Shown in pieces: positions 8,309-56,187 of a stretch of DNA of 64,000 nucleotides. The DNA lies in contig CAYVDC010000001.1 in NCBI GenBank assembly GCA_964450735.1, positions 69,577 through 133,576 on the forward strand, read 5' to 3'. This DNA comes from an uncultured Candidatus Saccharibacteria bacterium. Lineage in GTDB: Bacteria > Patescibacteriota > Minisyncoccia > Phycocordibacterales > UBA9973. Under the pieces are notes generated by a model, which was not told where the DNA came from, ran no database searches, and was given only the letters and a program-made list of their open reading frames with translations. Every line of letters starts with the position of its first letter. The first letter of the stretch is position 1. The position numbers were made by a program, and so were the translations under genes.

Positions 8309-8315
8309 GCATAAT

Positions 8316-8345
8316 TTCCAATATTTATATAAAAGAATATTGGAA
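8316..8345 (+). promoter_or_regulatory. Inverted repeat (ttccaatat / atattggaa) bracketing the late-promoter motif ATATTTATATAAAAG (8321-8335) and ending on the next ATG
   Basis: A 9-bp perfect inverted repeat; the loop contains the promoter-like motif; the 3' arm overlaps the ATG at 8345. Confidence 0.45.
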
Positions 8346-9517
8346 TGAATATAGATATTTGGAACGGCAGTTCTTCATTTTCCGCAGGACAAACATCATT
8401 TGGTTACTTTGATAGCGATGCTTCATTTATAGCAGATGCTGACAAGGTAGCCATTTTTTGTGCTAATTCTCTTGGATTTCCAATGGTTCAAGTGGAACTT
8501 GATTCGGGTTCTTTCTACAAAGCATTTGAACAAGCTGTTATGGATTATGCCAATGAGGTGTATGGACAACAGTTAGTAGATAATTTCTATTCCCTTCAAG
8601 GAACTCCCACAGGAAGTAATTTAAACAACGTTCTTGTCACCCCTTCTCTTGGGTCGATTATCAGGATTTCCAAAACATACGGAGCAGAAGCAGGAAGTGG
8701 TGGAGATATAAATGTATATTCGGGTTCTATCAAATTACATCCAAACGTTCAAGTGTATAATTTGAATGAATGGGCGGCAAATTCAGCTTCATTAACAGTA
8801 GGAGATTCAATTGAAATTAAAAGAATCTATTATCAACGTCCCCCATCAGTAGTTCAATACTATGACCCATTAGCGGGAAGTGGACTTGGAATGACTTCAT
8901 TAATGGATAGTTTTGGATTTAACGGCTACACTCCTGCAATAAATTATACATTGTTTCCATTGAATATGGACGCACTTAGAATTCAATCTATTGAATTGAA
9001 TAATGATATAAGACGTTCAGGATATTCCTTTGAATTAATGGGAAATGTTCTTAGAATTTTTCCTATCCCCACCGTTGAAACTTCTCTTTGGATTAATTAT
9101 ATTAAACAATCGGAACGCAATTCAAGCATTCTCACCACATCAGGTTCAGGTCTTGGAAGTGGACAGAGTGGACTAATCACCAATCCATCCAACGCTCCTT
9201 ATGCTAACATCACCTACTCCACAATCAATTCATTAGGAAAGTCGTGGATATTCAGATACACATTAGCATTATGTAAAAGGAAATTGGGATATGTGAGAGG
9301 AAAGTATTCAAGCATACCAATTCCAAATTCAGATGTAACATTAAATCAAGGAGATTTACTAAGTGGTGCTGATAATGAAATTACACAATTATTAGACCAA
9401 TTGAGAGATATGTTGGATAAGACATCCCGTAAATCTCAAATAGAATTACAAAATCAACAAGTGAATTATGTTAGAGACACCCTTTCAAATGTACCAATGG
9501 TAATTTATGTAAGATGA
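8345..9517 (+). CDS. Virion structural protein (baseplate/neck candidate)
   Basis: A 390-aa ORF preceded by the late-promoter motif. It heads a translationally coupled operon (ATGA overlaps) that leads into the fibre genes. Confidence 0.5.
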   Translation: MNIDIWNGSSSFSAGQTSFGYFDSDASFIADADKVAIFCANSLGFPMVQVELDSGSFYKAFEQAVMDYANEVYGQQLVDNFYSLQGTPTGSNLNNVLVTPSLGSIIRISKTYGAEAGSGGDINVYSGSIKLHPNVQVYNLNEWAANSASLTVGDSIEIKRIYYQRPPSVVQYYDPLAGSGLGMTSLMDSFGFNGYTPAINYTLFPLNMDALRIQSIELNNDIRRSGYSFELMGNVLRIFPIPTVETSLWINYIKQSERNSSILTTSGSGLGSGQSGLITNPSNAPYANITYSTINSLGKSWIFRYTLALCKRKLGYVRGKYSSIPIPNSDVTLNQGDLLSGADNEITQLLDQLRDMLDKTSRKSQIELQNQQVNYVRDTLSNVPMVIYVR

Positions 9518-14361: not shown

Positions 14362-17300
14362 ATGGCTCAAATAGTTCAATTAAAAAGAAATAGTGTAACA
14401 GGACAAATCCCAACAACAAGCAGTTTGGTAATGGGAGAATTGGCTATGAATACTTATGATGGACGTATTTTTTATAAACGTTCAGGAAGTGTTATAGCAA
14501 TAGAATCATTATTAAGTCCATCTATTAATAGTTCGTATCCAATATGGAATACAGGTAGCTTATATTTAAGTGGAAGTGGAATTGTAATTGAAGGAGCTAA
14601 TACTAATTTAGCTTTAAAAATAAAAGGTAGTAATACACAAGGAAGTGGAGTTGGAATTCAATTAGAAAATAATTATAGTACAGGAAAAACTTATCAAATT
14701 GTTTCTTATGATGATGGAACATTTGTTTTAAGGGATACTTCGGGAAACAATTTCTTTTATTTTAGTGGAAGTTTGTCATTAGTAAAAGATGGTGGAAATG
14801 TAGTGATTGGTGGAATTTCTAATACAAGTAATTCAAAATTAAAAGTGAGTGGAAGTGCAGAATTCACATCAAATGTTGTGATTTTTGGTAGTTTGACAAC
14901 TAATATAATATCAACATTATTAAAGACAACAAGTGGAGGCGTTATAACGTCATCTATTGCAGGTGTAGATTATATTGCTGGAGGGGTTGGTACTACGAAT
15001 TATCTTCCTAAATTTAGTGGAAGTGGTGTTTTAACCAATAGCGGAATTTACGACAACGGTACAGGTGTTGGGGTTGGAACTTCCGTCCCATTAGCACCCC
15101 TCCATGTTAAAGTAACTTCATCGGGTATAACGACAAACCCATTGGGGTCAGTGGGAATAATAGAATCATCAGGAGATGCTTATATAAGTATATATTCTCC
15201 AACATCAAGAGAAAAGGGATTGATATTTGGAGATAATACAAGTGAATATACAGGTGGTATATTCTACAATAGTTCAGGCGTTACTAATGGTTTAAATTTT
15301 AGAGTGAATGGGAATAATACCAAGTTAGTAATTACATCGGCAGGTAATGTTGGAGTAAACAATTCATCTCCTTCATATAGTTTGGACGTTTCGGGGACTG
15401 GTAGGTTCACAGGAGCGTTAACATTAACAACACCATTATCAGTTTCAAGTGGAGGAACAGGGACAGGAAGTTTTTATTCAAGCAGTTTATTAATTGGAAA
15501 TGGAACAGGTTCTTTAATACATAGTAGTAATTTAATATGGGATAATGTAAATGGATATTTAGGTATTAATAAAAATGGGGGTCAATTATATTCAGCAATT
15601 GATGTAAATGGAAATATTAGAATTAGAAAAGGTGATGCCTTATGGATGCCCGATTCTAATGATTCGATTAGAGTTGATGATGCACCATCATGGTATTCGG
15701 GGAATAGTAATGTTTTTACATTTTTAGGCTATGCAGGAACTTGGATATTTAGAACAAGTGATAGTTTGAGAAATGTAATGATAATAGATTCAAATATATC
15801 TAATGTTTTAAAAGTAAGCGGTTCTATTAGTAGTAGTGTTGATTTTTATTTTGGAACAACATCTGTTTCAGCTTCACTTGCTTTAAAAAATCCTTTATTA
15901 TCAGGTAGTGGATTCTTAAAACTGACATTGGGAGTCCCATCATATGTGACGGGGAGTAGTGTTCAATTTGTTAAAGGAGATGGAACTTTAGATTCTTCTA
16001 CTATTATATCAGGAAGTGGAATAAGCAACTATATTGCTAAATGGAATGGAAATTATTTAACAAGTAGTTTGATATATGATGATGGAACAAATGTTGGTGT
16101 TGGAACAACAAGCCCATTAAGAAAGTTTCATGTTGAAATAGGTTCTAACACTTATGCCTTTAGAATAGGTGTGGGGGGAACAAATTCAATTGAAATGGGA
16201 AATGAAGGAGCAGCAGGTAATTCTGTTATATCTTTTCAAGGAACAAACTTCTTCATGGGAGGAAATGGTGGAAAGGGTCTCGGAATTGGTGCAGGAGTAG
16301 TCAATGCAAATGTTCCAACAACATCAAGTTATACAAATATTGTTGGAAGTTTAGGAATTAATCAGTCAGCACCTTCATATTCGTTGGATGTAACAGGTGC
16401 GGGTAGATTTACGAGCGCATTAAAAGTTGATTCTACAACAGCAAGTACAAGTAGAAGTACAGGTGCTTTAATTGTAAGTGGAGGGTTAGGGGTTGGCGGA
16501 GCAGGATATTTTGGTGGAAGCATTATAATAACGGGGAGTGGAGGGTATTATGCACCAAATAATACAGCTTTTAGTTTTAGAAATGCAGCTAATTCAGCAT
16601 ATTTAAGGGCTTTTACACTCGCATCCGATGATAACTTAAAAATAGGTGAAGATTCAAATATATCTTATATTTTATCTAACTATATAGGTTTAGGTACATC
16701 CGCAATTTGGTCTAAAGTTACAATTGGGGGAGGTAATGTCACTTTATTAAATAATATAGATATACAGGGAGTTGTAGCAGCAAATAACACATTTTTACCT
16801 ATTATAAAACTAAATATATCAGACCAAGTATCTATTGCAAGTGGTGGGGCTGTTACAATTTTCGGTGGAAAAGTTGGTTTAGGGGTTACTGCAACAAGTG
16901 TTTTACATATTAAAGCAGGAACAGCCGCAGCAAATACTGCACCAATTAAATTAACAGCCGGAACAAATTTAACAAGTCCCGAATCGGGGTCAATAGAGTT
17001 TGATGGTACGGATTTGTTTTTCACACCATCTTCTACTCGTCGCACCTTTGCATTTTTAAATGGTAATCAAACTTTTAGTGGTGTAACAACCTTTTCAAAT
17101 ACAACCACCTCAACCTCAACCACCACAGGTGCTTTGACTGTTGCGGGGGGACTTGGTATTGTTGGAACATCTTACTTCGGAAACACTATCAATTCAGCGA
17201 CTTCCACCTCTAAAAAATTATCATTAAATAGTACGGGAAGTGAACAATTTCTCATTGCTAATAATTTTCTTAGATTGCAATATGATAATGGAAGTGCAAC

Positions 17301-20300
17301 AGGATGGCAAGGAGCAGGTGGTGGATTTGAAGTGGGAATGAATGATGCTGCTACGGTGTTCTTCCAAATGTATAATAGAACATCAAATGCACCTATTGCT
17401 TCGAGTTGGTTAACAAGTGGAATAATTGTTAATGATAATAGTGGAGGAGGTATCACACCAAGTTCAACTCAATTATTAACAGCAAGAACTTACACCACTA
17501 CAAAAGTTCCGTTTACAGTGATAGGAGCTACGTCCCAAAGCGCAGATTTATTGCAAATACAAAATGCTTCTTCTATTGCGTTAGCAGTGTTTAATAAAGA
17601 TGGATATTTAGGACTTGGAACAACGATTCCAACTCATTCATTGAGTTTTGGGATGAGTGGCTATTCAGATACTAAAACAATAGCATGGCAAAATTCAAGT
17701 TCAACAAATAGAGCAGCATATATACAAGCTGTGGGTATTGGAAATTACACTCACTACTTAGCATTTGGTGTAAATACGACAACAGCAGATGTCAATGCTG
17801 TCGAAGTGATGAGAATTGGTACTGATGGTACAGTGGCTGTTGGTACAACTACGACAGGAGGTGCTAAATTCACAATAGCTAATACAGGTTCAGGTGAAGT
17901 TGGACTTCTTCTTTTGAAAAACAGTGGAGCAAATGGAGATTCAGGAAAAATTATATTTGGAACAACAGCAGGTGGAGCAAATGGGGCGGAAATAGTTTCT
18001 AAAAGAACAGCAGGTGATTTTTCTGTTGATTTGTTTTTTAGAACAACGGATTCGGGTGGAATTCAAAATGAAGTGTTAAGGATGACTTCTACAAAATATG
18101 TTGGGATAAATAATTCTTCTCCTTCATATACATTAGATGTTAGTGGCTCTGTCAGAATTCCAAATAACACTTCTATTTATGGAAATAACATTTCAGGAAC
18201 TCCTGTTTCTTTAATCTCAATAAATACCAATAATAGAATAGTGTTATCTCAAACAGGATACACTGTTACTTTTAGTAATTTATTATTTTCCGATAATTCA
18301 ACAGAAGCAAGAATTCAAGCAGGAAATAGTGGTGGAATCAGATTCATGGCTTCAAATGCTTCCGATTTAGGAAAAATGTTTGAAAATGGAAACTATTCAT
18401 GGGGAAGTATCGTAGATAGTGGATATAAATTTGATGTTAGTGGTTCAACCCGCATCACTTCTACATTAAGTGTAACGGGAAGTGTATTCCTTTCAGGAAT
18501 AGGAAATGTTACATCAGGTTCAATAAATATTTTAATTAGTAGTGGCAGTGATTATAAAGTAAATGCTCTTTCAAGTAGTCAATTTATTTCTAATTTAGGA
18601 ATTGTAAGTGGAAGTGGAACTGCTCGTTATTATTCAGTATTCTCATCATCAGGAGTGATTGGTAACGGTGGAATGTATGATAATGGGGTGGGAAGTGGTG
18701 TTGTTAGCATGGATTATAATATTCTATATCTTGGTAACACGGCTACAAATAACACATTAAACGTTAATAGAACAGGGGCTTCTCCATCATCAATAAGTGT
18801 AACTGCTGGGGTGGCGAATCCTTCTATTACATTTGTTAGTGGATATGGTCTTGGTGGAAGATTGAGTATAGGAAGTGCTTCATTAGAAATAATGTCATTT
18901 TGGGGAGATGGAAATGTTTCCATTAACAATGCTTCCAATGCAGGATATAAGTTAGATGTTTCGGGAAGTGGTAGATATATAGGTGACTTATTTATTTCAA
19001 GTTCAACAGCTTCAACAAGTGTCACGACAGGTGCTTTAACAATTAGAGGTGGGCTGGGGGTGAGTGGTTCAATATATGGTGGAACAACTCTATCTATTAT
19101 ATCTTCGGGAAGTGCTTCTGTTAATGGAGGAATATATGTTGGAACAGGGGCTACCTTCGCTTCAAATGCAGATAATTTATTGACAGTTAGAGGAACAGGT
19201 AATTCAGCATCTTCTTGGAAGGGAAGAATAACGGCTGGAGGTGATAATTATGCCTTTTTGATGGGGGAATTTAATTCACATGCTTGGTTAGGTGGACATA
19301 ATGCGGCTCTTAATGCTTGGGCAGATTTATACATTAATCCCGAAGCAAGTGGTGCGAAAAAAGTTTTTATAGGGGCAGTAAGCGCAAGAGAGAATGCTAT
19401 ATTAACAATAGATAATGCAACAGGATATAGCACGTTTAGTGGCTCTGTCTATGCTTCTGTTGGTGCTATATATGCAAAAGCAGGAGTAAATTTAACTTCA
19501 ACATCATCATATACATTTGACGGCTATGCAAATTATGGACATTATTTAGACCTTAATAGTGGATATATTCAATTTGTTGGAAATGGAACAAAAATAGGAG
19601 GATTTTATACAGGTGCTACTAAGGGGTTTGGATTTAATAACAGTTCAATTTTGGCTTGGAATGGTGCATCTGAAACTGCGCCTGATATTTCAATAGAAAG
19701 AGTTGCTACTAATACTATTTCAGTTGGCACTGCATTAGGTGGTTCTAATAATGGAACTTTATCTGCGGGGATGATTGGTGTTGCGACCATCTCTCCATCA
19801 TATTCATTAGATGTATCAGGAAGTGGTAGGTTTACAGGAAATTTAATAATAAGTGGTGGACTTACAGGGTCTTTATTTGGCAATGCTTCTACTGCAACGG
19901 TATTACAAAGTGCGAGAACTATTAACGGAACTTTATTTGATGGTTCTGCTAACATAACAATATCCATATCAGGAAGTGCCTTATTAGGAACAACTTTAGC
20001 TTCAAATATAGTCAGTAGTTCATTAACAACTTTAGGAACTATTGGTACAGGCTTATGGAATGCAACGAAGATAAGTGAAGTGTATGGGGGAACTAATCAA
20101 TCTACATATACTGTCGGTGATATGCTTTATTCAAGCGGAAGTAATACATTGAATAAATTGGCGATTGGTTCTTCGGCTCAAATGTTAATTGTAAATAGCG
20201 GCATTCCGTCTTGGCAAACTGTTAGTGGAGATATTACAATTACCAATGCAGGTGTAACGGCTATTGGTTCAAGCAAAGTTACTAATACAATGCTTTCTGG

Positions 20301-21453
20301 TTCTATTGCAAGTTCTAAATTAATTGGAACTGATATTACAACAATAGGAACGATAACATCAGGAACTTTAGGTACAGGAGCAGTAATAGCAGGTGTTACA
20401 ATAACATTGGGTTCTGATGCAAGTTATGATTTACATTATAGAAATAGTAGCGGTATCTTAACAAGATTGGCTAATGGAACGACAGGTCAAGTTTTAACCT
20501 CAACTACAAATGCCGCCCCTTCTTGGGCATTAGCTAATGCAGGATTGTTGACAGGGTTTGCGAGCGCAGCAGGAACATTGAGTGCATCGGATACTATATT
20601 ACAGGCAATCAGTAAATTAGATGGAAACTTAAATGCACAATCTATCACCGCTTATACTGCCACAGGTTCTAATAGTTACACAATGCCAACGGGAGCTAAG
20701 TCATTTATTATAGTTTGTGTAGGAGCAGGTGGAGGTGGAGGAAGTGGAAGGAAAGATGCCAATAACACCAATAGATATGGCGGAGGTGGAGGCGGTTCAG
20801 GTGCAATTAGTATTGTCCATATCAGAGCTACCGATGTAAGCGGAAGTACATTGACTTGTTCAGTAGGAGCAGGAGGTGGAGGTGGAGCAGCAAGGTCAAC
20901 CTCAGTTGATGGTGCAACAGGAACTGCTGGAGGTGATACTACTGTCACCAATAACTCCGTAACTATATGCAAGGCTTCTGGGGGTTCGGGTGGAATTGGT
21001 GGAACAAGTGCAGCAGGAACAGGTGGAGCAGGTGGCACTGTTGGAGATTTTGTTGGTCTATCGGGAGGTAGTAGTTCAGTTTCAGGAACTGCTGGCGCGG
21101 GGACAAGTTCAGTGAATAAAGTTGCAGGTGGAGGTGGAGCAGGTGGAGGTTCAGATTCATCCGAAAACTGGAGAAATGGTGGAGCAGGTGGTAGTGGTTA
21201 TTTTGGTTTAATTACAGGGGGGACAGGTGGTGTTGCTGCAACTTCATCTGGTACTAATGGAACTGCACCAAGTAATGCTCAATTAGTAGGCTCAGGTGGT
21301 GGTGGAGGAACATTAGGTTCAGGTACAACCACAGGAAAAAACGGAGCAAGAGGAGCAGGAGCAGGTGGAGGTTCTGCGGGTAACGCTACCACCAATTCAG
21401 GTGCAGGTGGCACAGGTGGAAATGGATACGTTTTAATATTTGCTTATTTTTAA
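14362..21453 (+). CDS. Giant tail fibre protein (2363 aa) with repeated modules and a Gly-rich C-terminus
   Basis: N-terminal IVQLKRNSVTGQIPTTSSLVMGELAMNTYDGRIFYKRSG fits the conserved phage tail-fibre N-terminal motif (QL+R...GEl..n.dG+l). At least 5 copies of (S/A)PSY(S/T)LDV(S/T)G.GR(F/Y) occur, each followed by TGALT(V/I).GGLG. The last ~250 aa are 50% Gly or more and end in GNGYVLIFAYF. Confidence 0.75.
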   Translation: MAQIVQLKRNSVTGQIPTTSSLVMGELAMNTYDGRIFYKRSGSVIAIESLLSPSINSSYPIWNTGSLYLSGSGIVIEGANTNLALKIKGSNTQGSGVGIQLENNYSTGKTYQIVSYDDGTFVLRDTSGNNFFYFSGSLSLVKDGGNVVIGGISNTSNSKLKVSGSAEFTSNVVIFGSLTTNIISTLLKTTSGGVITSSIAGVDYIAGGVGTTNYLPKFSGSGVLTNSGIYDNGTGVGVGTSVPLAPLHVKVTSSGITTNPLGSVGIIESSGDAYISIYSPTSREKGLIFGDNTSEYTGGIFYNSSGVTNGLNFRVNGNNTKLVITSAGNVGVNNSSPSYSLDVSGTGRFTGALTLTTPLSVSSGGTGTGSFYSSSLLIGNGTGSLIHSSNLIWDNVNGYLGINKNGGQLYSAIDVNGNIRIRKGDALWMPDSNDSIRVDDAPSWYSGNSNVFTFLGYAGTWIFRTSDSLRNVMIIDSNISNVLKVSGSISSSVDFYFGTTSVSASLALKNPLLSGSGFLKLTLGVPSYVTGSSVQFVKGDGTLDSSTIISGSGISNYIAKWNGNYLTSSLIYDDGTNVGVGTTSPLRKFHVEIGSNTYAFRIGVGGTNSIEMGNEGAAGNSVISFQGTNFFMGGNGGKGLGIGAGVVNANVPTTSSYTNIVGSLGINQSAPSYSLDVTGAGRFTSALKVDSTTASTSRSTGALIVSGGLGVGGAGYFGGSIIITGSGGYYAPNNTAFSFRNAANSAYLRAFTLASDDNLKIGEDSNISYILSNYIGLGTSAIWSKVTIGGGNVTLLNNIDIQGVVAANNTFLPIIKLNISDQVSIASGGAVTIFGGKVGLGVTATSVLHIKAGTAAANTAPIKLTAGTNLTSPESGSIEFDGTDLFFTPSSTRRTFAFLNGNQTFSGVTTFSNTTTSTSTTTGALTVAGGLGIVGTSYFGNTINSATSTSKKLSLNSTGSEQFLIANNFLRLQYDNGSATGWQGAGGGFEVGMNDAATVFFQMYNRTSNAPIASSWLTSGIIVNDNSGGGITPSSTQLLTARTYTTTKVPFTVIGATSQSADLLQIQNASSIALAVFNKDGYLGLGTTIPTHSLSFGMSGYSDTKTIAWQNSSSTNRAAYIQAVGIGNYTHYLAFGVNTTTADVNAVEVMRIGTDGTVAVGTTTTGGAKFTIANTGSGEVGLLLLKNSGANGDSGKIIFGTTAGGANGAEIVSKRTAGDFSVDLFFRTTDSGGIQNEVLRMTSTKYVGINNSSPSYTLDVSGSVRIPNNTSIYGNNISGTPVSLISINTNNRIVLSQTGYTVTFSNLLFSDNSTEARIQAGNSGGIRFMASNASDLGKMFENGNYSWGSIVDSGYKFDVSGSTRITSTLSVTGSVFLSGIGNVTSGSINILISSGSDYKVNALSSSQFISNLGIVSGSGTARYYSVFSSSGVIGNGGMYDNGVGSGVVSMDYNILYLGNTATNNTLNVNRTGASPSSISVTAGVANPSITFVSGYGLGGRLSIGSASLEIMSFWGDGNVSINNASNAGYKLDVSGSGRYIGDLFISSSTASTSVTTGALTIRGGLGVSGSIYGGTTLSIISSGSASVNGGIYVGTGATFASNADNLLTVRGTGNSASSWKGRITAGGDNYAFLMGEFNSHAWLGGHNAALNAWADLYINPEASGAKKVFIGAVSARENAILTIDNATGYSTFSGSVYASVGAIYAKAGVNLTSTSSYTFDGYANYGHYLDLNSGYIQFVGNGTKIGGFYTGATKGFGFNNSSILAWNGASETAPDISIERVATNTISVGTALGGSNNGTLSAGMIGVATISPSYSLDVSGSGRFTGNLIISGGLTGSLFGNASTATVLQSARTINGTLFDGSANITISISGSALLGTTLASNIVSSSLTTLGTIGTGLWNATKISEVYGGTNQSTYTVGDMLYSSGSNTLNKLAIGSSAQMLIVNSGIPSWQTVSGDITITNAGVTAIGSSKVTNTMLSGSIASSKLIGTDITTIGTITSGTLGTGAVIAGVTITLGSDASYDLHYRNSSGILTRLANGTTGQVLTSTTNAAPSWALANAGLLTGFASAAGTLSASDTILQAISKLDGNLNAQSITAYTATGSNSYTMPTGAKSFIIVCVGAGGGGGSGRKDANNTNRYGGGGGGSGAISIVHIRATDVSGSTLTCSVGAGGGGGAARSTSVDGATGTAGGDTTVTNNSVTICKASGGSGGIGGTSAAGTGGAGGTVGDFVGLSGGSSSVSGTAGAGTSSVNKVAGGGGAGGGSDSSENWRNGGAGGSGYFGLITGGTGGVAATSSGTNGTAPSNAQLVGSGGGGGTLGSGTTTGKNGARGAGAGGGSAGNATTNSGAGGTGGNGYVLIFAYF

Positions 21454-23336: not shown

Positions 23337-26300
23337 TTGAAAACTAAAAATAAATACAATTTTACTTCTTCTGTTAATAATTATGTAACAGAATCTATTT
23401 CTCAATATTATACAAGTAGTTATAATATTGTAACAGAATCTATTGTTCTTAAAAATAAAGATTCTGTTATAATAGAAGGGTCTGCTTCTATTTCAATTAG
23501 TGGAAGTTTGTTTTATAAAGACTTGGGAGAACTAAGTGATTTTTATTATTCTACTCCTGTTGTAAACATTAGAGATGTTAAAAATATAAGTTCATCAAAA
23601 TATGGAGATGGCTTAGTGGGAACATCTTCTTTGTGGGATTTGAATTCTCCTATATTTTATATCTCCACTCCTGAAAAGAAATATGATGGAATAGATGGGA
23701 GTTATTTTCCTATTGGAAAAATATATAGAGGAATACTTCCCCCCTCCTATTCTTATGATGTTTATGGAGACACATTAACTGACCTTCCCTTTTATGCTGA
23801 ATATGAAAAATCATTATATACATTAAGACCAGAAGGAAATGACCGTCTCGATTTAACAGGAAACATTTATAAAAGAAACATTTCTCCCTCTAACATTAGT
23901 AGTAGTGGATTTGTTTCTGCTTCCAATTTATATATTACAGGAGCTTCATTTCAATATTACATCACTTCTTCTCACGTCACTGTTGGAAATCTCATCCCTT
24001 ATTATGCTGTTTTTGCCGATGTTACAAGTTCTTTAGTAAGTGGAAATTTAAGATATAGCGGAAGTGCATTGATAATTGATGGGGGGTCTTTTAATTTAAT
24101 AAATTCTACATTTAATATATCGGGAAGCACTTTATATATCAGTTCTTCCACTATATTACAAAATAATGTTACTAATAATTTTACAAACAATTCATTTAAT
24201 TATGTAAACAATTCCATTGTTTATTCAAGTAGTAGTATAAACTTATTAAATGGAACTACGTTAATTGTTCCGAGTGGAAGTTCATTAATAGTGAGTGGAA
24301 CATTATTAGTGAATAATATACAAAGTATTTACAATAACAATACAGTAGTTTATTCAGGCAGTTATATTGGAGATGGAAGTGGACTCTATAATTTAAAAAT
24401 TGGCTTAACTGTATCGGCAAGTGGATTGACAGAAACAGCAGGACAGCTTCTTCTTTCCGATGAACCATTTAGATTTAAAACTAATATTTCTTCTGGACTT
24501 GATGTTTCATTTTCTGACGTGAGCAATGAGTTGTATATTGGAGCATTTGATGCTACTTATACAATGAAAGGGGTGAGTTATTACGAAAGTAAATCTTTTG
24601 ATGTAAAAGCGGGATTTGTTAAATTAATAACATCTTCTCTTTCCATTAGACTTAATTTAGGAAATAGTTTAAGTGGAAGTGGACTCACCTCTATTAAAAT
24701 AGGAGATACGGGTAGCTTAGATACTATTCAAGATATTAGAATTACAGCTACACCTACATTTAATCAATTAATTCTTTCTTCACAAGCGGTTTCAAGTAGT
24801 AATGCTGTAAGGGCTGATAGGAGTTTATCATTTATTACATTTCCACAACAAATAGATGTAAGTTCAAACGGAAGTTCCTATTCAGATTTAGTAACATTCA
24901 ATCTCACTTCTGATAGAAGTGTTTATTTGAAATTAGAAGATAATGTTTACATTTCAGGAAGTATTACAAGTAAGACAGGTAGTTTTCAATATGTAACAGG
25001 CAGTTTTTATGGAGATGGAACTAATTTATTAAATGTTCCTTCAAAAATAGCAATTTCAGCAAGTGGACTTACTAATACTAATACATTATTAAACATTCCT
25101 TCTCAATCTCTCTCTGTTTACACAAATACATCAACAGGAATAAATGTTATTTATACAAATTCGCGTCTTGAATTTAATAACATTTCAAGTAGTTATTCAC
25201 AATTAGGTGTTAGTTATTATGACAGTGGCGCATTTATAGTTTCACAGGGATTTGTGACAATAGATACGGGAAGTTTAAGAAATTCTGTAAGAATAAATGT
25301 TGGAAATAGTTTAAGTGGAAGTGGACTGACATCATTAAAACTTGGTGCTACGGGGAGTATTGATACTGTTCAAGATATTAGAACCACTGCATTTCCAACA
25401 TTTGCACAGATAGATCTATATAATTCAGCGAGTAGCAGTTTAAATGCTGTGCGGGCAGATAGAACAGTGGCGGTTTATGTACAACCAAACCAATTGGAAA
25501 TAAGTAATTCTGGTAGTTATGGAGGTACATTTGGAAACGTTTATACTTACGATTTAACTAATAACAGAGAATATTCAATAAGACTTTCTAATGATGTTAG
25601 AATTTCAGGGAGTTTTACCGCAGCAACAGCTTCCATCACTAATTTAACAGTGATAAATTCAGCATCAATCAATGGTAACTTAGTAGTTTCGGGAAACCTT
25701 TCTGTTTTAGGAACATCTTCCATTATAGATTATACCACCATCAATAGTAGTGGAAGTACAATCGTTCTACATTCAACATCTTCTTTAATAAATGGTGGAA
25801 TAAAAATATATGAAAGTGTTGGAACACCAACGACAGGTTCATTAATTTATGATGTAACCAATCACTTTTGGAAAGCGGGGATAGAGGGAAGTGAGAAAAG
25901 AATTGTATTACAATCAGGTATTGACCCACTCACTCCATATGCTATTGTTTACGCTGATATAAGTGGCAGTTTAACATCATCTATTGCTCCTATTTTAAAC
26001 GTAGATTATACAATTCCTTCTTGGAATGGAGCGTATTGGGATGTTACTAACACTGTTAATGGTGGATTTTATGGTATAACAACAGGAAGTTTACATTTAA
26101 GACTTAAACATAGTAATAGTGGAAGTGTGAGACCATCCACTTCTGATTTAAGAAGGGCTGAACTTGCTTATAATACCATTTTAGGAAAATTATGGATTTT
26201 AAAAGAGAATGGAGTAAGTTCTGTTGAAGAAATATTTGTAACCAATTCGGGTACAACAGGTAGTTTGTATTTAAGTGGAAGTGGGCATAATGTTACAGGA

Positions 26301-27815
26301 GTTTGGAGTCAAACGGGAAGTGTTTATTTAACACAATTAACAGGAAGCACTCTTGATTTATTGACAATTGATTCTACAACATTAGTTGGAAGAAAATCTG
26401 TTATTTCTCTTTCTTCTTCATTTGACACCATCTACTATAAACAAGGAGGAAATACATTCACTCCATCGGGAACATTAGGATTATTGGGAAATGTGGATTT
26501 ATCCATTATTACAAATAATGTTGAAAAACTAAGGATAAAAAATACAGGAACTTTTCTTTTTAACACTGTAAATGAATATGGAACACTTACGATAAAAAGT
26601 GCAACAGGAAGCCTTCCAACAAAAATAACATTAGAATCTCGTAACGACGATAGTGTAATTTCATTTAGAAATACCTCTAATTCCGAAATATATAAAATTT
26701 CACAATATGGTGGAAGTGCATATATGAAGCATGAGGCATCTTCTGATTTATATATGCTCCTTCCTAATAAATTATATATTGTTGGGAGTGGGTCTATCGA
26801 ATCATTAGATACACAAGAAGCAGATGGACTTGTAATTAATTCCACAGAAACTCTAAGAGCAGGTATTAGTTTTTCAAGTAATGTGGCAACGGGAAGTGAT
26901 ACAATATTTCCAAGTTTTCCAATGTGGAATATTGGTACGAATCACAACGGACATATGTTATTTTCGGGCGCGAGAAAGAATAAATATCTTTATATATTTA
27001 CCACTCCAAATAATACAGCAGCCAATAACAAAACGGAAATGATATTGGGAACTGAATATCTTGGAGAAGCAGTTTCAGGTAATGCTATTTCATTATTGAA
27101 TGATAAAGCAACGGGATTTTATATAAAAGATTATGTAAATGATAAAAACCTATTATTTTATGATTTTACAAATAGCATACAAAGTGTTTCGGATTCAAAA
27201 ATAACAACGTTAAATTTACAAAGCCCTAACATCTATCTCAACACCATGTCAGCAAGTAGAGATGATGTTTTGATGTTAAGAACAGATGGAAAATTAATAA
27301 GAAGTACAACAGGAAGTTTATTTTTAACAAGTTCTATTGATGGAGTTTTTCACAAACAAGGAGGAAATAGTTATACATCTTCTTTGGTTATAGGTAGTTT
27401 GAATAATTATGGAGTGACGATTGTAGCTAACTCAAACACCACAGTTGCAACTTTAGCAACATCAAGTATAAGTTTATATGCAAATACATTTATAAGTGGA
27501 ACTTTATTAGTAACCAATGATGTAACAGCATATTATAGTTCAGATGAAAGATTGAAAGATGACGTTAGAGTAATTTCATCGCCATTAGAAAAAATTCATC
27601 AAATAAGTGGTGTTAATTTCAAATGGAATGAACTTTCAGGAAAAGAAATGGTAAGAGATTACGGGGTGATAGCCCAAGAAGTTGAAAAAATAATGCCTGA
27701 ATTGGTTGTTAATAGAGATAATGGATATAAAGCTGTTAGATATGAAAAACTCATTCCATTATTAATAGAATCTATAAAAGAATTATCAAATAGAGTTAAA
27801 AGATTGGAGGGATAA
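23337..27815 (+). CDS. Tail fibre/spike protein (1492 aa) with C-terminal peptidase S74 intramolecular-chaperone domain
   Basis: C-terminal SDERLKDDVRVISSPLEKIHQISGVNFKWNELSGKEMVRDYGVIAQEVEKIMPELV...YEKLIPLLIESIKELSNRVKRLEG matches the autoproteolytic chaperone of endosialidase and T5 L-shaped fibres (Ser nucleophile in S-D-x-x-x-K). The ORF has no in-frame ATG for ~400 codons, so the 5' end is uncertain (TTG at 23337). Confidence 0.75.
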   Translation: MKTKNKYNFTSSVNNYVTESISQYYTSSYNIVTESIVLKNKDSVIIEGSASISISGSLFYKDLGELSDFYYSTPVVNIRDVKNISSSKYGDGLVGTSSLWDLNSPIFYISTPEKKYDGIDGSYFPIGKIYRGILPPSYSYDVYGDTLTDLPFYAEYEKSLYTLRPEGNDRLDLTGNIYKRNISPSNISSSGFVSASNLYITGASFQYYITSSHVTVGNLIPYYAVFADVTSSLVSGNLRYSGSALIIDGGSFNLINSTFNISGSTLYISSSTILQNNVTNNFTNNSFNYVNNSIVYSSSSINLLNGTTLIVPSGSSLIVSGTLLVNNIQSIYNNNTVVYSGSYIGDGSGLYNLKIGLTVSASGLTETAGQLLLSDEPFRFKTNISSGLDVSFSDVSNELYIGAFDATYTMKGVSYYESKSFDVKAGFVKLITSSLSIRLNLGNSLSGSGLTSIKIGDTGSLDTIQDIRITATPTFNQLILSSQAVSSSNAVRADRSLSFITFPQQIDVSSNGSSYSDLVTFNLTSDRSVYLKLEDNVYISGSITSKTGSFQYVTGSFYGDGTNLLNVPSKIAISASGLTNTNTLLNIPSQSLSVYTNTSTGINVIYTNSRLEFNNISSSYSQLGVSYYDSGAFIVSQGFVTIDTGSLRNSVRINVGNSLSGSGLTSLKLGATGSIDTVQDIRTTAFPTFAQIDLYNSASSSLNAVRADRTVAVYVQPNQLEISNSGSYGGTFGNVYTYDLTNNREYSIRLSNDVRISGSFTAATASITNLTVINSASINGNLVVSGNLSVLGTSSIIDYTTINSSGSTIVLHSTSSLINGGIKIYESVGTPTTGSLIYDVTNHFWKAGIEGSEKRIVLQSGIDPLTPYAIVYADISGSLTSSIAPILNVDYTIPSWNGAYWDVTNTVNGGFYGITTGSLHLRLKHSNSGSVRPSTSDLRRAELAYNTILGKLWILKENGVSSVEEIFVTNSGTTGSLYLSGSGHNVTGVWSQTGSVYLTQLTGSTLDLLTIDSTTLVGRKSVISLSSSFDTIYYKQGGNTFTPSGTLGLLGNVDLSIITNNVEKLRIKNTGTFLFNTVNEYGTLTIKSATGSLPTKITLESRNDDSVISFRNTSNSEIYKISQYGGSAYMKHEASSDLYMLLPNKLYIVGSGSIESLDTQEADGLVINSTETLRAGISFSSNVATGSDTIFPSFPMWNIGTNHNGHMLFSGARKNKYLYIFTTPNNTAANNKTEMILGTEYLGEAVSGNAISLLNDKATGFYIKDYVNDKNLLFYDFTNSIQSVSDSKITTLNLQSPNIYLNTMSASRDDVLMLRTDGKLIRSTTGSLFLTSSIDGVFHKQGGNSYTSSLVIGSLNNYGVTIVANSNTTVATLATSSISLYANTFISGTLLVTNDVTAYYSSDERLKDDVRVISSPLEKIHQISGVNFKWNELSGKEMVRDYGVIAQEVEKIMPELVVNRDNGYKAVRYEKLIPLLIESIKELSNRVKRLEG

Positions 27816-30553
27816 TGCTTCAACTATCAGGTGCGATAAGCATTAGTGATATATGGAATGAAGTTCAAATGTCCATTACTCAATCAAATTTTAGTGGGCT
27901 TGAAACTTCACAATATTTTACATTAAATCAAAATTCATTTTATAAACCAAGTCAAGCTATTCCAAGTGCTTTGACTGAGTGGTATGGATATTGCCATTTT
28001 TGTACAGGAAGTGGTAGCACAACAACTACATCTACAACATCTCCTGCTTGTAATTACGGAACAATAACTCCTGATACCGGTTGTTATCTTGGGGGAACTT
28101 TATATATTGTCACATCAAATAATGTAAGCAGTTTACAGGCAAGTATTGATGGCGGTGCTACATGGATTGATGGACTTTTTATGTTCACAAATGCGTATAG
28201 ATTTACGGTGGGAAGTGGATTTTTTAACGTTTACATGAGAATTAATAGTTCATGTCCTGCTACTTACTTAGGATTTTATCAAGTTTGTGCCACTACAACC
28301 ACAACAACAACATCTCCTGCTTGTAATTACGGAACATTAACATTTACAAGTGCTTCTTGTCAAAATGGAGGTAGTTTATTTTTCAAAACATCTATTTCCA
28401 CATCCACATTACAAATTTCAACAAACAATGGAGCAACATGGGTAAGTGGTGTTTTAAATGCAAATGGCAGATTCAGATTCACCGTTGGTAGTGGATTTTT
28501 TAACGTTTACATGAGAATTAATAGTTCATGTCCTGCTACTTACTTAGGATTTTATCAAGTTTGTGCCACCACCACTACAACAACAAGTACATCTACATCA
28601 ACTACATCTACAACCTTAGCACCATCAACTACAACAACAACAATTGCCGCAACTACAACCACCACTCAACCGGGAACGACCACTACCACCACTGTTCCAT
28701 CATATTGTAATTTTGGAACAATAACTCCTGATACCGGTTGTTATCTTGGGGGAACTTTATATATTGTCACATCAAATAATGTAAGCAGTTTACAGGCAAG
28801 TATTGATGGCGGTGCTACATGGATTGATGGACTTTTTATGTTCACAAATGCGTATAGATTTACGGTGGGAAGTGGTAATTTACATGTTTATTTGAGAGTG
28901 GATGAAGGATGTCCCCCAACAGACATTGGATATTTCACAGTTTGCGGAGCATCTACTACAACCACAACAACAACTGGTAGTCCAACCACTACACAACCAC
29001 CTACGACAACAACGCTTCCTCCATTTACCACTACGACGACAACGTTAAGTGGAACGACTACTACGTTAGCTCCAACAACTACAACCACCACTGTATTTAC
29101 AGGAACTACCACTACATCTACTACACAAGCACCAACCACCACTACAACAACGGTGAATTGTAATATATCAACTAATAATGTTACAGCAGATTGTGTCGGT
29201 GGAGGTAGTATTCATATTTATACATCAAATTCACCTGTTTCGTTACAAATTTCATTCGATGGAAGTACGTGGTATAGCTGTTCTAATCAGGGTGGTGGTT
29301 TATTCTCAGCAACAGTTCCACCCGGAACATATGGAAGTGTATATGCAAGGGTGAATAGTTCATGTGGTGCTACCCAAATTTGGGGAAATATTGTAATATG
29401 TGTTGCCACTACAACTACGATTGTTACTACAAGCACAACATCAACAACAAGCACAACAACTCTCTCTCCTGCTACGTTAGATTTCACACTTAATTCTGAT
29501 TGTGTAGATGGAAGAAATCCATTAGGTGCTATTTCTGTATCGGGAGTTGTAAATAATGTGGGAAGTGTTCAATATAGTATTGATGGTGGGGCTTATCAAG
29601 GAAGTAATGTCTTCTTAGATTTACCAAATGGTCTTCATAGTGTCACTGTAAAAGATTCTGCTAATAACACTAAAACTAAATCCATCACTGTTAGTTGTAC
29701 GGTTGTCACTACATCTACTACAAGTACGACATCTACAAGTAGTACCACCACCCAAGCACCTGCTACAACAACGACAACACAAGCACCAATCACTACATCT
29801 ACAACGTCAACAACGAGTACAACAACACTCTCCCCTGCAACATTAGACTTTGCTGCAAACGCAGATTGTGTTGATGGACGAAATCCGAAAGGAGCAGTGT
29901 CTGTTACAGATGTTGTGAATAATGTTGGAGCAGTTGAGTATCAATTAGATTTTGGTTCATTTCGAGGAAGTAATGTATTTTTAGATGTTCCGAATGGGAC
30001 ACATTCTGTTACAGTGAGAGATAGTGTCGGAAACACTAAAACAAAAGGTGTCACTGTAAGTTGTACAAATCCTACAACCACCACATCTACTACACAAGCA
30101 CCAACAACCACTCTTGCGCCAACTACTACGTTAGCTCCAACGACAACATTAGCCCCCACCACTACAACCACAATAGCGATTCCTCCTGGTGTTGGTGATT
30201 TAGCGATAGATGTTTCTATTTCAAACAGTAATCCTTGTATTGACACTGTGATAAGTGTAACATGTACAGTGACTAATCTGGGCCCAAATACTCAACATAA
30301 TGTAACATTTGCTAATTATCTTCCTGTTTCATTAACTTATGTTTCAGGAAACGGTGTGAATTCAGGAGGAACTGTATCTAAAACAGCAGGAACATTAGCT
30401 AATGGGGCAAGTGACACTCTTTCTTATAATGTCTATGTTAATAATCACGCTGTTAATAATATTGTTATTTCCGAAATAACAGGATATAGTGTGGCAGACC
30501 CCGATAATTCAAATAATCATAAAAATGCAGCATTTACTTCTAAATATTGCTAA
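27815..30553 (+). CDS. Thr-rich mosaic surface/adhesin-like protein with SprB-type Cys-bounded repeats (912 aa)
   Basis: Three copies of C-N-(Y/F)-G-T-(I/L)-T...SIDGGATW(I/V)...FTVGSG...C domains are separated by poly-Thr (mucin-like) linkers. Two copies of DCVDGRNP.GA(I/V)SV...V.Y..D.G....SNVFLD.PNG.HSVTV.DS.(N/G)NTKTK..TVSCT resemble the SprB repeat consensus. The C-terminal domain is DUF11-like (CIDTVISVTCTVTNLGPN). Confidence 0.6.
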   Translation: MLQLSGAISISDIWNEVQMSITQSNFSGLETSQYFTLNQNSFYKPSQAIPSALTEWYGYCHFCTGSGSTTTTSTTSPACNYGTITPDTGCYLGGTLYIVTSNNVSSLQASIDGGATWIDGLFMFTNAYRFTVGSGFFNVYMRINSSCPATYLGFYQVCATTTTTTTSPACNYGTLTFTSASCQNGGSLFFKTSISTSTLQISTNNGATWVSGVLNANGRFRFTVGSGFFNVYMRINSSCPATYLGFYQVCATTTTTTSTSTSTTSTTLAPSTTTTTIAATTTTTQPGTTTTTTVPSYCNFGTITPDTGCYLGGTLYIVTSNNVSSLQASIDGGATWIDGLFMFTNAYRFTVGSGNLHVYLRVDEGCPPTDIGYFTVCGASTTTTTTTGSPTTTQPPTTTTLPPFTTTTTTLSGTTTTLAPTTTTTTVFTGTTTTSTTQAPTTTTTTVNCNISTNNVTADCVGGGSIHIYTSNSPVSLQISFDGSTWYSCSNQGGGLFSATVPPGTYGSVYARVNSSCGATQIWGNIVICVATTTTIVTTSTTSTTSTTTLSPATLDFTLNSDCVDGRNPLGAISVSGVVNNVGSVQYSIDGGAYQGSNVFLDLPNGLHSVTVKDSANNTKTKSITVSCTVVTTSTTSTTSTSSTTTQAPATTTTTQAPITTSTTSTTSTTTLSPATLDFAANADCVDGRNPKGAVSVTDVVNNVGAVEYQLDFGSFRGSNVFLDVPNGTHSVTVRDSVGNTKTKGVTVSCTNPTTTTSTTQAPTTTLAPTTTLAPTTTLAPTTTTTIAIPPGVGDLAIDVSISNSNPCIDTVISVTCTVTNLGPNTQHNVTFANYLPVSLTYVSGNGVNSGGTVSKTAGTLANGASDTLSYNVYVNNHAVNNIVISEITGYSVADPDNSNNHKNAAFTSKYC
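28058..28218 (+). repeat. Intragenic direct repeat A copy 1 (~161 bp, near-identical to 28714-28874)
   Basis: The string ggaacaataactcctgataccggttgttatcttgggggaactttatatattgtcacatcaaataatgtaagcagtttacaggcaagtattgatggcggtgctacatggattgatgg...tacggtgggaagtgg occurs twice, apparently identically. Confidence 0.8.
28213..28291 (+). repeat. Intragenic direct repeat B copy 1 (~79 bp, identical to 28491-28569)
   Basis: gtggattttttaacgtttacatgagaattaatagttcatgtcctgctacttacttaggattttatcaagtttgtgccac occurs twice. Confidence 0.8.
28491..28569 (+). repeat. Intragenic direct repeat B copy 2
   Basis: See copy 1. Confidence 0.8.
28714..28874 (+). repeat. Intragenic direct repeat A copy 2
   Basis: See copy 1. 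Confidence 0.8.
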
Positions 30554-34748: not shown

Positions 34749-37061
34749 ATGACTATTGACGAAGAAGCCAGACGACAGCTAAAATCAAATATAGAACGAA
34801 TTGATAATACTCTTTATACTGATAAAGAGTTTGATAAGATTTTATCAAAAAGTAAGAAGTATAAAACTCTTTTGACAGAAATAAAAAATGAGTTATTAGA
34901 AACGACTGATACTTACGGAAAAATATCGTCTGAAATTAGAAAAATAGAAGACCTTTTAAAAAAAGGAAGAACTAAATCTAATGAATGGAATGATGTTAAT
35001 AATAAAATATTAGGCACTTTTAAATCAATATCTTCGATTAATAATACTTTATTAAGTAATACAGATGCTCTTTTAACAGGAGATTTGGAACTCAAAAAAG
35101 TAAAAAGTGATATTAATAAATTAAGTGGAATTCAAATTTCTCTTACATCGCAGCGAGATGAGATTCAGAATGTTGTGTTGAAAGGTATATCCGATGAGAG
35201 AGCCGAATTGGATTTATCATTAGCTGCTGATAAAAAAAGAAATACTGAATTAAGATTACAAGAACATCAGTATAGAAAAATAATAAAGGCTATTGACGAT
35301 GAAAGAGCAGGACTTACATTAGCAGAAACCACACTGAGAAATCAAAAGGAACAAGTTAAGTCTATAAGTGACCAAATGGGGATATTTGGAAAATTAATGA
35401 GCAGTTTAAAGAATTTTCCCGTACTTTCGAGCATAGTTGACTTAGAAGTAGTGGAAGATAGTATGCAAAGTTTTATAGTATCTGAGAGGGGGGCTGCTTC
35501 TTGGTTGGGTGTTTTGGGTAGAGGTGCAAGCACATTCGGGACGGAATTAGCTGCGGCATTTGGCCCAGCAACAGCACTTTTTCTCGCTGTCGAAGGAATA
35601 GTTGGATTGTTCAGAGCATTCATGGCTTCTGATGATAGAATCACGAGGATTCAAAGAAATTCATCAATGAATGTTAAAGATGCTACTAAACTTAGAAACA
35701 TAAATACGCAAATAGCCAATGAAAGTAAATTAACTTATGAACAAATTCAAACATCAAGAGAAAAGGTAAATGAATTGACAGGACTTTCTATTGTTCTTAA
35801 TAATAGAAATATTGAACAATTTGGATTAATGGCTGAAAATTTAAAACTTTCAGAAGAATCTTTAGCGGGACTTTTATCAAACAGCTTTCTTTTAAATGGA
35901 AGTGTTGAAAATACAATTGATAGTATTTTAGGAACAAGTGAATTGTTACAACATCAAAGCAAATTGTATTTAGATGATAAGAAGGTGTTGGAAACTGTCC
36001 TGAAAACAAGTGGAGGAATTAGAGCTAATTTTAAAGGAAATGTTACTGAATTGACAAAATCTGTTACACAAGCACAAAGTTTAGGTGTGACATTAGAGCA
36101 AATTAGTTCATTTGGAGAAAAATTATTAGATTTTGAATCTTCTATTTCATCAGAATTACAAGCTGAACTAATAACAGGAAAGCAATTAAATTTAGAACGT
36201 GCAAGGTATTATGCACTAACAGGTGATACTAATTCATTGATGAAAGAAATGTTAGCTAATACAGGTGATATTGATGAATTCACAAAGATGAATGTAATTC
36301 AACAAAAATCCTTAGCAGAAGCATTTGGTATGTCGAGAGATGACCTATCTGATATGTTATTTAGAACAAAACAATTAGCTTCAATGAATAGAGCTAATTA
36401 TTCAGAAAGAGCTAAAAAGGAATTTATAGAAGGAAAGTCTATTGAAAAACAAATAGAACAATTAAAATTGTTAGGAAAAACTAACGATGAGATTGTTACA
36501 GCATTAGGAAAAGGTGTTAGAGGTAATTTGGAACAATTAAAGATTGATGAAGAATTTGCTAAGAGAGTGGATGATTTGAAAAGCTCATTTTTAAGTAATT
36601 TTGGGATTGAGACTATTAGAAGTTTTTTTGCTGTTCTAAATAGAGGAATGATTTTCATAAATAAATTAGTAGCGGTTAAAGATAATATTGGATTGGGGAT
36701 GGAATCTGCAACTGAAATGGCTAATAGAGCTACAAATAGAATGAGTTTATCTGGACTTATTTATAATACAATACACCCTGTCAACGACAGCGTAATTTCT
36801 CCAAAAGGAAGAATTCAAATATCAACCCCCGAAGGAATGATAACTCCGAATATTAAAGATAGCATCATCACCACAACTAACCCACAAGCATTATTGAATG
36901 GAGGTGGAACTGATGTTAGAAAGGAGCTTCAACAACTAACACAAGAGGTGAAAAGGGGAAATGATATGATAACAAGTGCTATTAATCAGAACAAAAACAT
37001 CTATATCAATTCCACTAAATTGACGGAAACTATAAATAAGTATAATAACAAGCTCACTTAA
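34749..37061 (+). CDS. Tail tape measure protein
   Basis: A 770-aa, highly alpha-helical coiled-coil-type sequence with a central hydrophobic Gly/Ala segment (AASWLGVLGRGASTFGTELAAAFGPATALFLAVEGIVGLF). It follows the sheath, tube and chaperone genes. Confidence 0.7.
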   Translation: MTIDEEARRQLKSNIERIDNTLYTDKEFDKILSKSKKYKTLLTEIKNELLETTDTYGKISSEIRKIEDLLKKGRTKSNEWNDVNNKILGTFKSISSINNTLLSNTDALLTGDLELKKVKSDINKLSGIQISLTSQRDEIQNVVLKGISDERAELDLSLAADKKRNTELRLQEHQYRKIIKAIDDERAGLTLAETTLRNQKEQVKSISDQMGIFGKLMSSLKNFPVLSSIVDLEVVEDSMQSFIVSERGAASWLGVLGRGASTFGTELAAAFGPATALFLAVEGIVGLFRAFMASDDRITRIQRNSSMNVKDATKLRNINTQIANESKLTYEQIQTSREKVNELTGLSIVLNNRNIEQFGLMAENLKLSEESLAGLLSNSFLLNGSVENTIDSILGTSELLQHQSKLYLDDKKVLETVLKTSGGIRANFKGNVTELTKSVTQAQSLGVTLEQISSFGEKLLDFESSISSELQAELITGKQLNLERARYYALTGDTNSLMKEMLANTGDIDEFTKMNVIQQKSLAEAFGMSRDDLSDMLFRTKQLASMNRANYSERAKKEFIEGKSIEKQIEQLKLLGKTNDEIVTALGKGVRGNLEQLKIDEEFAKRVDDLKSSFLSNFGIETIRSFFAVLNRGMIFINKLVAVKDNIGLGMESATEMANRATNRMSLSGLIYNTIHPVNDSVISPKGRIQISTPEGMITPNIKDSIITTTNPQALLNGGGTDVRKELQQLTQEVKRGNDMITSAINQNKNIYINSTKLTETINKYNNKLT

Positions 37062-56005: not shown

Positions 56006-56177
56006 ATTACAGAAAGACGTTAATTTTTTTGGAAGAATGATTCCAAAAGGAACAATTTACACAGAGTTGGGGAATAGAGATTTATATCAACCACAATTCA
56101 ATGGTTCTAAACATCCCAACTTAGAACTTAGTTTCATGGTTGTTCTTGCAAATGAAGAATATTTTAAACAAATCTAA
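55989..56177 (+). CDS. Possible small ORF between purA-like and the methyltransferase
   Basis: A 62-aa ORF filling a 180-nt gap. Confidence 0.25.
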   Translation: MKKQFELQKDVNFFGRMIPKGTIYTELGNRDLYQPQFNGSKHPNLELSFMVVLANEEYFKQI

Positions 56178-56187
56178 TCGTTTAATT

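Follow-up and report, generated by a model that had tools for sequence, protein, structure and literature searches.

Introduction

Phage proteins with SprB-type repeats are annotated in public databases, and immunoglobulin (Ig)-like decorations of virions and recombining cassettes of fibre modules are likewise already known. Here, we describe a gene for a modular, threonine-rich, adhesin-like protein of 912 residues, which we compare with these systems. The gene lies on a 64,000-nucleotide stretch of contig CAYVDC010000001.1 (hereafter the window, whose positions are used throughout), which belongs to a T4-like myovirus. It is flanked by a tail-fibre gene with a C-terminal Peptidase_S74 domain and by the sheath and tube genes, and its product consists of an N-terminal domain (N-domain), four modules of one type (A1, A2, A3 and A4), two of another (B1 and B2) and a DUF11 domain, in this order, as established by self-comparison, alignment and local hidden Markov models (HMMs).

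The six modules are best compared with the SprB/Asp-box modules (PF13573) of Bacteroidota cell-surface proteins, among them the gliding adhesin SprB, which is secreted by the type IX secretion system (T9SS), and its relatives, and with those of phage proteins annotated as 'SprB repeat', such as A0A6J5MUM3. They resemble these in their length of ~80 residues, an N-terminal Cys, a Gly-rich first hairpin, the motif (Y/Q)S(I/V)DGGxxW/Y, a strand of the form G.Y.V.V.D and their arrangement in tandem arrays. Unlike SprB proteins, however, the window protein has no module at the Pfam threshold, no signal peptide and no T9SS C-terminal domain; its modules are separated by long Thr-rich spacers rather than being contiguous, its A modules carry four Cys, and it is encoded in a phage tail module. 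The C-terminal domain is comparable to the DUF11 domains of fibrillar adhesins (PF01345, recently renamed CLIPPER), which have a CnaA-like Ig fold, form the stalks of these adhesins and often contain a Lys-Asn isopeptide bond (PMC12617251; 9IFR). The likeness lies in a match over the whole Pfam model and in a long, repetitive, adhesin-like protein, whereas the domain is present here as a single terminal copy instead of a tandem stalk and, unlike CLIPPER domains with an isopeptide bond, has no Lys in its first ~60 residues.

Phage Ig-like decorations and adhesins (T4 Hoc, Ig-like domains on tail and fibre proteins, modular gut-phage adhesins; PMC13370021) share with the window protein the tandem small β-sandwich modules and, by analogy, a presumed weak binding to glycans or surfaces and a presumed display on the virion. 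There is no sequence relationship to them, and the window protein differs in its putative N-terminal docking domain, linked to an S74 fibre, and in its mucin-like Thr spacers. Finally, gp38 of the T2/S16 type is also encoded directly downstream of the distal fibre gene and also joins a conserved N-terminus to a variable, recombining C-terminus, but it is not homologous: it is compact, has poly-Gly motifs and sits on a fibre without an S74 chaperone.

Results

The adhesin gene is coupled to an S74 tail-fibre gene

The adhesin gene begins at a TAATG junction, in which its ATG overlaps the stop codon of the fibre gene. In local HMM searches, the fibre's S74 domain extends to 27809 and the N-domain begins at 27815. 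The fibre itself matches PHROGs for tail fibres and for the distal subunit of long tail fibres. The adhesin contains 23% Thr overall and 26 regularly placed Cys; its N-terminus, MLQLSGAISISD, is not signal-like, and Pfam gave no Por_Secre_tail or CHU_C match. An exact-protein look-up found no record elsewhere, the gene had no nucleotide or tblastn match among INPHARED phages, and a single-protein scan of IMG/VR gave no relatives. Orthologues of the open reading frame (ORF) are under purifying selection (dN/dS, the ratio of non-synonymous to synonymous substitution rates, 0.14-0.42).

The N-domain belongs to a recognisable family. Alignment-guided scans of IMG/VR, JGI and GTDB contigs returned N-domain relatives with 34-48% identity, situated at the start of otherwise unrelated proteins that differ from the window protein in their low-complexity spacers (TPSI repeats, PTPTPLPATA) and in their small C-terminal domains; the alignment-based IMG/VR scan produced relatives for the N-domain only. 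The family motif, of ~65 residues, reads M.L.LSG.(I/L)S(I/M).DI(R/W).E(L/V)...IN..S...P....(S/T)EWYGY.H. The alignment, which we call A7, has 14 invariant columns, and an N-domain HMM matches the window with an E-value of 6e-34.

In the window and in contigs L002-7, L009-13, L016, L018, L020 and L021, local HMMs place the start of the N-domain 3-85 nt past the end of an S74 domain. This pairing is found in at least six lineages, one of them a Chitinophagaceae prophage: L021 is a prophage-like region on a contig of a Chitinophagaceae metagenome-assembled genome (MAG), with a collar fibre, the S74 fibre, the N-domain protein and an integrase-like gene. In L013 the downstream sheath gene is kept as well. 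Besides L017, discussed below, the exception to the pairing is L019, a short contig. Judged from these sequences, the N-domain proteins form a family of variable, putatively surface-exposed proteins of Bacteroidota phages that carries no annotation and whose genes immediately follow one for a Peptidase_S74 tail fibre. This pair, which defines the family and goes beyond the earlier note on this DNA, could help to predict determinants of host range or surface binding in metagenomic phages.

In the MAG contigs L020 (5899-6771) and L021 (5920-6774), the longest ORF adds a hydrophobic, signal-like stretch upstream that overlaps the end of the fibre gene; translation probably begins at a GTG inside this ORF, immediately ahead of GLPTSG. 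The N-domain proteins of these two contigs have no low-complexity spacer.

On balance, we consider it probable that the window protein is a modular virion adhesin associated with the tail fibre, built like beads on a string, of a T4-like myovirus with a likely Bacteroidota host. The N-domain would dock the protein to the tail, at either the fibre or the baseplate: the gene linkage is observed, and physical attachment is suggested by a gene that directly follows the S74 fibre gene, by the overlap of start and stop codons and by a pairing conserved across lineages. Ig-like domains on phage structural proteins, and bacterial fibrillar adhesins, offer an analogy for its function: the module array may extend from the tail and bind surface polysaccharide or other polymers weakly and multivalently, which would raise the rate of encounter or adsorption.

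Several points weigh against this reading. A location in the virion or on the tail is no more than suggested by the order of the genes and by the overlap of start and stop codons, and the N-domain has no Pfam, PHROG, PDB or INPHARED match and no characterised homologue. In L017, the N-domain gene lies about 4 kb from the S74 domain. With no signal peptide, the many Cys would have to oxidise after lysis. As to a ligand, the structural model of the A module retrieves only generic Ig, FN3 and CBM56 folds (E >= 0.012), and an SprB-annotated protein appears at rank 35 with an E-value of 0.16. The extra modules and the order of the copies described below, moreover, rest on a single assembly.

The same linkage could mean that the protein is the primary receptor-binding adhesin at the fibre tip, in the manner of gp38 of T2 and S16, with the N-domain capping the mature S74 tip and the variable modules setting host range. 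The fibre gene that the adhesin gene directly follows does match, in PHROG, the distal subunits of long tail fibres, the S74/N-domain gene pair is conserved, the family combines a conserved N-terminus with a highly variable C-terminal part, and a host-range determinant would be expected to undergo the kind of cassette exchange seen here between genomes that are identical elsewhere. We nevertheless rate this possibility as rather unlikely, since sequence similarity to gp38 is absent, long flexible spacers and strings of Ig-like domains are typical of accessory decorations and not of rigid tip adhesins, an S74 fibre normally has a receptor-binding or enzymatic region of its own ahead of the chaperone that is cleaved off, and members of the family carry unrelated C-terminal domains.

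A placement away from the tail fibre appears improbable. In T4, wac has a fibre gene on one side and the neck and sheath genes on the other, and the position of the window gene, after the fibre gene and before the sheath gene, resembles this, so that the protein could be a positional analogue of the wac product. Alternatively, as the earlier note proposed, it could be a Hoc-like decoration of the capsid, or of the neck or whiskers, with the N-domain bound to capsid or collar: tandem Ig-like modules are the design of Hoc (PMC9271167), and this phage has a T4-type Gp23 capsid. Pfam and PHROG, however, detect no Hoc or fibritin homology, and the capsid-binding domain of Hoc is C-terminal, whereas the domain conserved in this family is N-terminal. 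The tight, conserved coupling to the S74 tail-fibre gene, which persists in a prophage of a different genome type, points to the tail, and the proposal of a capsid decoration is not upheld.

The modules are divergent relatives of the SprB/Asp-box module

Cys-bounded β-domains strung on Thr-rich linkers, as the earlier note had described them, are indeed present (Table 1), with linkers of 7-67 residues each and 54-86% Thr. AlphaFold2 (AF2) models of A2 and B1 are six- to seven-stranded β-sandwiches, with a predicted local distance difference test (pLDDT) score of 92.2 for A2. Three domains of the first type had been recognised; there is a fourth, more divergent A module at residues 447-531 that had been missed. 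The A modules have four Cys and contain the Asp-box SxDGGxTW.

Table 1 Features of the adhesin gene and its fibre partner (window positions; aa, amino acids)
Feature	Position	Strand	Basis or remark
Modular Thr-rich adhesin-like protein, ORF, 912 aa	27815-30553	+	ORF call, translation
Upstream partner: tail fibre, 1492 aa, C-terminal Peptidase_S74 intramolecular chaperone domain	23337-27815	+	Pfam PF13884, E 7.8e-16; PHROG
N-domain, aa 1-68	27815-28018	+	Alignment A7 with N-termini from other phage contigs, 34-66% identical
Module A1, aa 77-160	28043-28294	+	Chimera: A2 5' edge / A3 core / A2 3' edge; absent from orthologues
Module A2, aa 168-252	28316-28570	+	53-55% aa identity to first module of P0001/P0002
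Module A3, aa 296-379	28700-28951	+	Divergent paralogue, 42% aa identity to A2; with flanking linkers absent from orthologues
Module A4, aa 447-531	29153-29407	+	Fourth, more divergent A type; orthologous to second module of P0001/P0002, 59-60% identity
Module B1, aa 551-630	29465-29704	+	AF2 pLDDT 94.4; BFVD, hhalign to SprB modules
Module B2, aa 673-752	29831-30070	+	71% aa identity to B1
C-terminal DUF11/CLIPPER (CnaA-like Ig) domain, aa 790-912	30182-30550	+	Pfam PF01345
Thr-rich linker L2, 43 aa, 63% Thr	28571-28699	+	
Other linkers	28019-28042, 28295-28315, 28952-29152, 29408-29464, 29705-29830, 30071-30181		
161-bp exact repeat	28058-28218 (core of A1) = 28715-28875 (core of A3)	+	
80-bp exact repeat	28214-28293 (3' edge of A1) = 28490-28569 (3' edge of A2)	+	
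30-bp exact repeat	28034-28063 (linker end and 5' edge of A1) = 28307-28336 (5' edge of A2)	+	

A 20-residue lead-in, TTSTTSTTSTTTLSPATLDF, precedes both B1 and B2 (29426-29485 and 29792-29851). Its two copies are identical in protein, while 12 of their 60 nucleotides differ, all synonymously and including AGC/TCT serine codons; this suggests constraint even on part of a low-complexity linker.

The last two modules had been described as SprB-repeat-like. At the level of Pfam this does not hold, as PF13573 matched neither the whole protein (E <= 1) nor any isolated module (E <= 10). Besides DUF11, Pfam returned only weak, sub-threshold Big_9 and BNR matches, and PHROGs gave marginal matches only to the B region. 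More sensitive comparisons, however, do connect the modules to SprB. We built a reference SprB profile from 13 modules of ~80 residues, all 13 of which match PF13573; against it, hhalign gave 97.4% (E 9e-12) for the A modules and 97.6% (E 3e-12) for the B modules. An HMM of the same 13 modules, run against the window, matched only the ORF at 27815-30553, once for each of the six modules. The SprB likeness therefore stands but is not confined to the B modules: at the level of sequence profiles the A modules are as SprB-like as the B modules. Compared directly, A and B reach only 64% in hhalign, so that a common origin is not demonstrable that way, yet both match the SprB module profile.

Database searches with each profile agree with this picture. 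The B profile recovered a protein, P0007, that passes the Pfam SprB threshold and to which the B modules are 45% identical (hhalign 97.9%). An exhaustive HMMER search with the A profile returned 142 proteins, mostly giant multi-repeat proteins, among them one whose 16 Pfam SprB repeats are interspersed with Asp-boxes, and others with T9SS sorting domains. The best BFVD match of the B model is a phage protein annotated 'SprB repeat' (E 1.8e-4, TM 0.78); further matches include other SprB-annotated phage proteins and gp28 of Polaribacter phage P12002S, a virion structural protein encoded two genes after the tape measure gene. In INPHARED, the B module found a weak Polaribacter match only. No solved SprB structure surfaced in our PDB searches, and PDB sequence searches with the B, N-domain and DUF11 profiles gave nothing significant and did not retrieve 9IFR. 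Taken as profile evidence, these comparisons indicate that A and B are divergent relatives of the SprB/Asp-box module that fail formal Pfam membership.

The DUF11-like end, by contrast to the modules, is secure in Pfam, in agreement with the earlier note: PF01345 matches with 53.7-60 bits against a cutoff of 24.6 (E 3e-14 to 4e-16), covering model positions 1-113/114. The isopeptide triad of CLIPPER domains consists of a Lys in β1, a catalytic Asp and an Asn, and some family members are without it; in 9IFR, the bond-forming Lys is the eighth residue of the domain (PMC12617251). Inspection of the sequence shows no Lys in residues 753-855 of the window protein, and because of this absence we place its domain in the subset that lacks the canonical β1 Lys and hence the canonical bond. 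Three Cys may substitute for it.

Exact intragenic repeats record a recent gain of modules

An exhaustive search for maximal exact direct repeats within the ORF yielded the three pairs listed in Table 1. Two of them had been noticed before as repeats of ~161 and ~79 bp; the third, of 30 bp, is an addition. When the gene was shuffled, the longest exact repeat was at most 16 nt in 200 codon shuffles and at most 14 nt in 200 base shuffles, so the observed repeats are far beyond chance. The blocks do not interleave as had been thought. They are nested and adjacent, in the order 161a, 80a, 80b, 161b along the gene, and the two first copies abut inside A1 with a 5-bp overlap.

A three-way DNA alignment shows that A1 is an exact chimera: 30 bp, including the last linker codons, are those of A2, the following 161 bp are those of A3, and the final 80 bp are again those of A2. 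Outside each tract, the third copy differs at 35-45% of positions, and the switch points lie in short motifs common to A1, A2 and A3, namely GGAACA and AGTGG. Two syntenic metagenome orthologues, P0001 (657 aa; on nine contigs) and P0002 (639 aa), have the architecture N-domain, A2-like, A4-like, B, B, DUF11, and are without A1, A3 and their linkers. The copy-number comparison across relatives that had been proposed thus returns four modules in the orthologues and six in the window gene, and A2 is the ancestral first A module.

The simplest history of A1, as read from these sequences, is that A2 was duplicated in tandem and that the core of the upstream copy was then overwritten by a gene-conversion tract of 155-161 bp from A3. 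Since the repeat tracts are still exact, both events are recent, with no substitution since; the recent intragenic recombination that the earlier note had supposed is borne out by the orthologues without A1 and A3 and by the exactness of the chimera. The locus does not overturn current understanding and is a fairly ordinary example of phage adhesin evolution. What it adds is an unusually clean record of duplication and conversion, a datable picture of a phage adhesin gaining modules through one duplication and one ~160-bp conversion patch, both perfectly preserved.

Strain variants or mis-joins during assembly might have inflated a four-module gene to six modules: the exact 161- and 80-bp repeats exceed common assembler k-mers, the exact protein is not recorded elsewhere, and every relative has two A modules only. 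We regard such an artefact as very unlikely. The two junctions of A1 (A2 edge to A3 core, and A3 core to A2 edge) are unique strings with 5-6 bp of overlap, which an assembler cannot invent and which must be in the reads; the 3' part of A3 and the long linkers L2 and L3 are also unique, and the relatives have nothing that corresponds to them; and, by our reasoning, no linear path other than the present order would use each junction once.

The central cassette is exchanged among related phages

Compared with contigs of the L002 type, the window shows 74-82% nucleotide identity in the flanking fibre and sheath genes and 65-73% within the adhesin gene. A much sharper contrast is seen between two of the related contigs. 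L007 and L002 are 100% identical over the 3' end of the fibre gene, the N-domain, DUF11 and more than 4 kb downstream, and only 46-89% identical over the A, B and linker part, in keeping with the earlier description of the locus as hypervariable. In the central modules, which are under purifying selection, the synonymous substitution rate (dS) is 0.35-1.46 and dN/dS is 0.13-0.25; the N-domain and DUF11 have a dS of 0. The substitutions show no adenine bias, with 21-26% of sites differing for every base.

Because the flanks are identical, dS is high, dN/dS is low and the spectrum is unbiased, these data argue for import of the cassette, and against hypermutation or positive selection. The diverged central cassette was replaced as a whole, with the conserved N-domain and DUF11 serving as anchors for homologous recombination. 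Hypermutation directed by a diversity-generating retroelement or the like, to which the sharp confinement of the variability inside a putative binding protein might point, is effectively refuted by the even spread of differences over the four bases, by low dN/dS at high dS, by variation that covers about 1.4 kb and includes indels, by intragenic repeats that are exact and not A-mutated, and by the absence of a template copy elsewhere in the window.

The gene was likewise rejected as a candidate target of such a retroelement, given its exact repeats, the unbiased spectrum and the lack of a copy outside the gene. No reverse transcriptase was found among the window ORFs scanned, which were part of the total.

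L007 and L002, otherwise 98-100% identical, differ in a second sharply bounded segment (L007 7590-8940, 65-95% identity), which lies inside a 771-residue protein downstream of the baseplate hub gene; its window orthologue is the ORF at 34749-37061 (770 aa). A smaller divergent segment occurs in the fibre (L007 750-1050). Both may be further recombination cassettes of the tail module.

Host, neighbouring genes and a possible adhesin class

Besides the Gp23 capsid protein, the window encodes gp32, a RecA/UvsX-like protein, PolB, DnaB, a GroEL-like chaperonin and sheath, tube and baseplate hub proteins. The sheath protein is closest to that of Flavobacterium phage immuto (48% identity). Domains resembling the B module occur in Polaribacter and crAss-like phages, including a crAss-like phage structural gene in which such a module is flanked by poly-Thr/Ser, and relatives of the N-domain occur on Chitinophagaceae and Sediminibacterium MAG contigs. 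On these several, individually weak sequence indicators, the host is most likely a member of the Bacteroidota. The earlier note had suggested a Flavobacteriia host; these matches support the phylum but not that class specifically.

Bacteroidota generally use Shine-Dalgarno sequences little. At window positions 27796-27817, a GGAGG motif of the Shine-Dalgarno type lies 6-11 nt before the adhesin ATG, within the final fibre codons, which would be unusual if the host is a member of this phylum.

Between the capsid and head-tail adaptor genes, the window encodes a glycosyltransferase of family GT2 (7544-8308) and an FkbM-type methyltransferase (3514-4188). In L017, where the N-domain protein has Pro/Thr-rich spacers, it is followed directly by a fusion of GT1, FkbM and Methyltransf_24 domains (6370-8931). 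With these enzymes in the structural region and beside an N-domain gene, it is conceivable that the spacers are glycosylated. A broader proposal, which we put forward tentatively and think doubtful, is that the N-domain proteins are a widespread and previously undescribed class of exchangeable 'plug-in' adhesins of Bacteroidota phages, in which a universal ~65-residue plug on the S74 fibre would carry interchangeable payloads (SprB-type, CLIPPER or other small β-domains) on Thr/Pro/Ser spacers, perhaps O-glycosylated by phage glycosyltransferases into mucin-like filaments. The combination of N-domain, spacer and payload could serve as a natural scaffold by which binding modules are displayed on phage tails.

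Two large ORFs shortly before the fibre genes (14362-21453, 2363 aa, and 11512-14355, 947 aa) have no PHROG match at E <= 1e-5; the larger has a short poly-Thr/Ser stretch at about residue 916. Elsewhere, the window encodes the GroEL-type chaperonin (58350-59981), an adenylosuccinate synthetase (54884-56005), a C5 cytosine DNA methylase (56140-57027) and a deoxynucleotide monophosphate kinase (61843-63084), the last of which is interrupted by, or fused to, NUMOD4/HNH homing-endonuclease domains.

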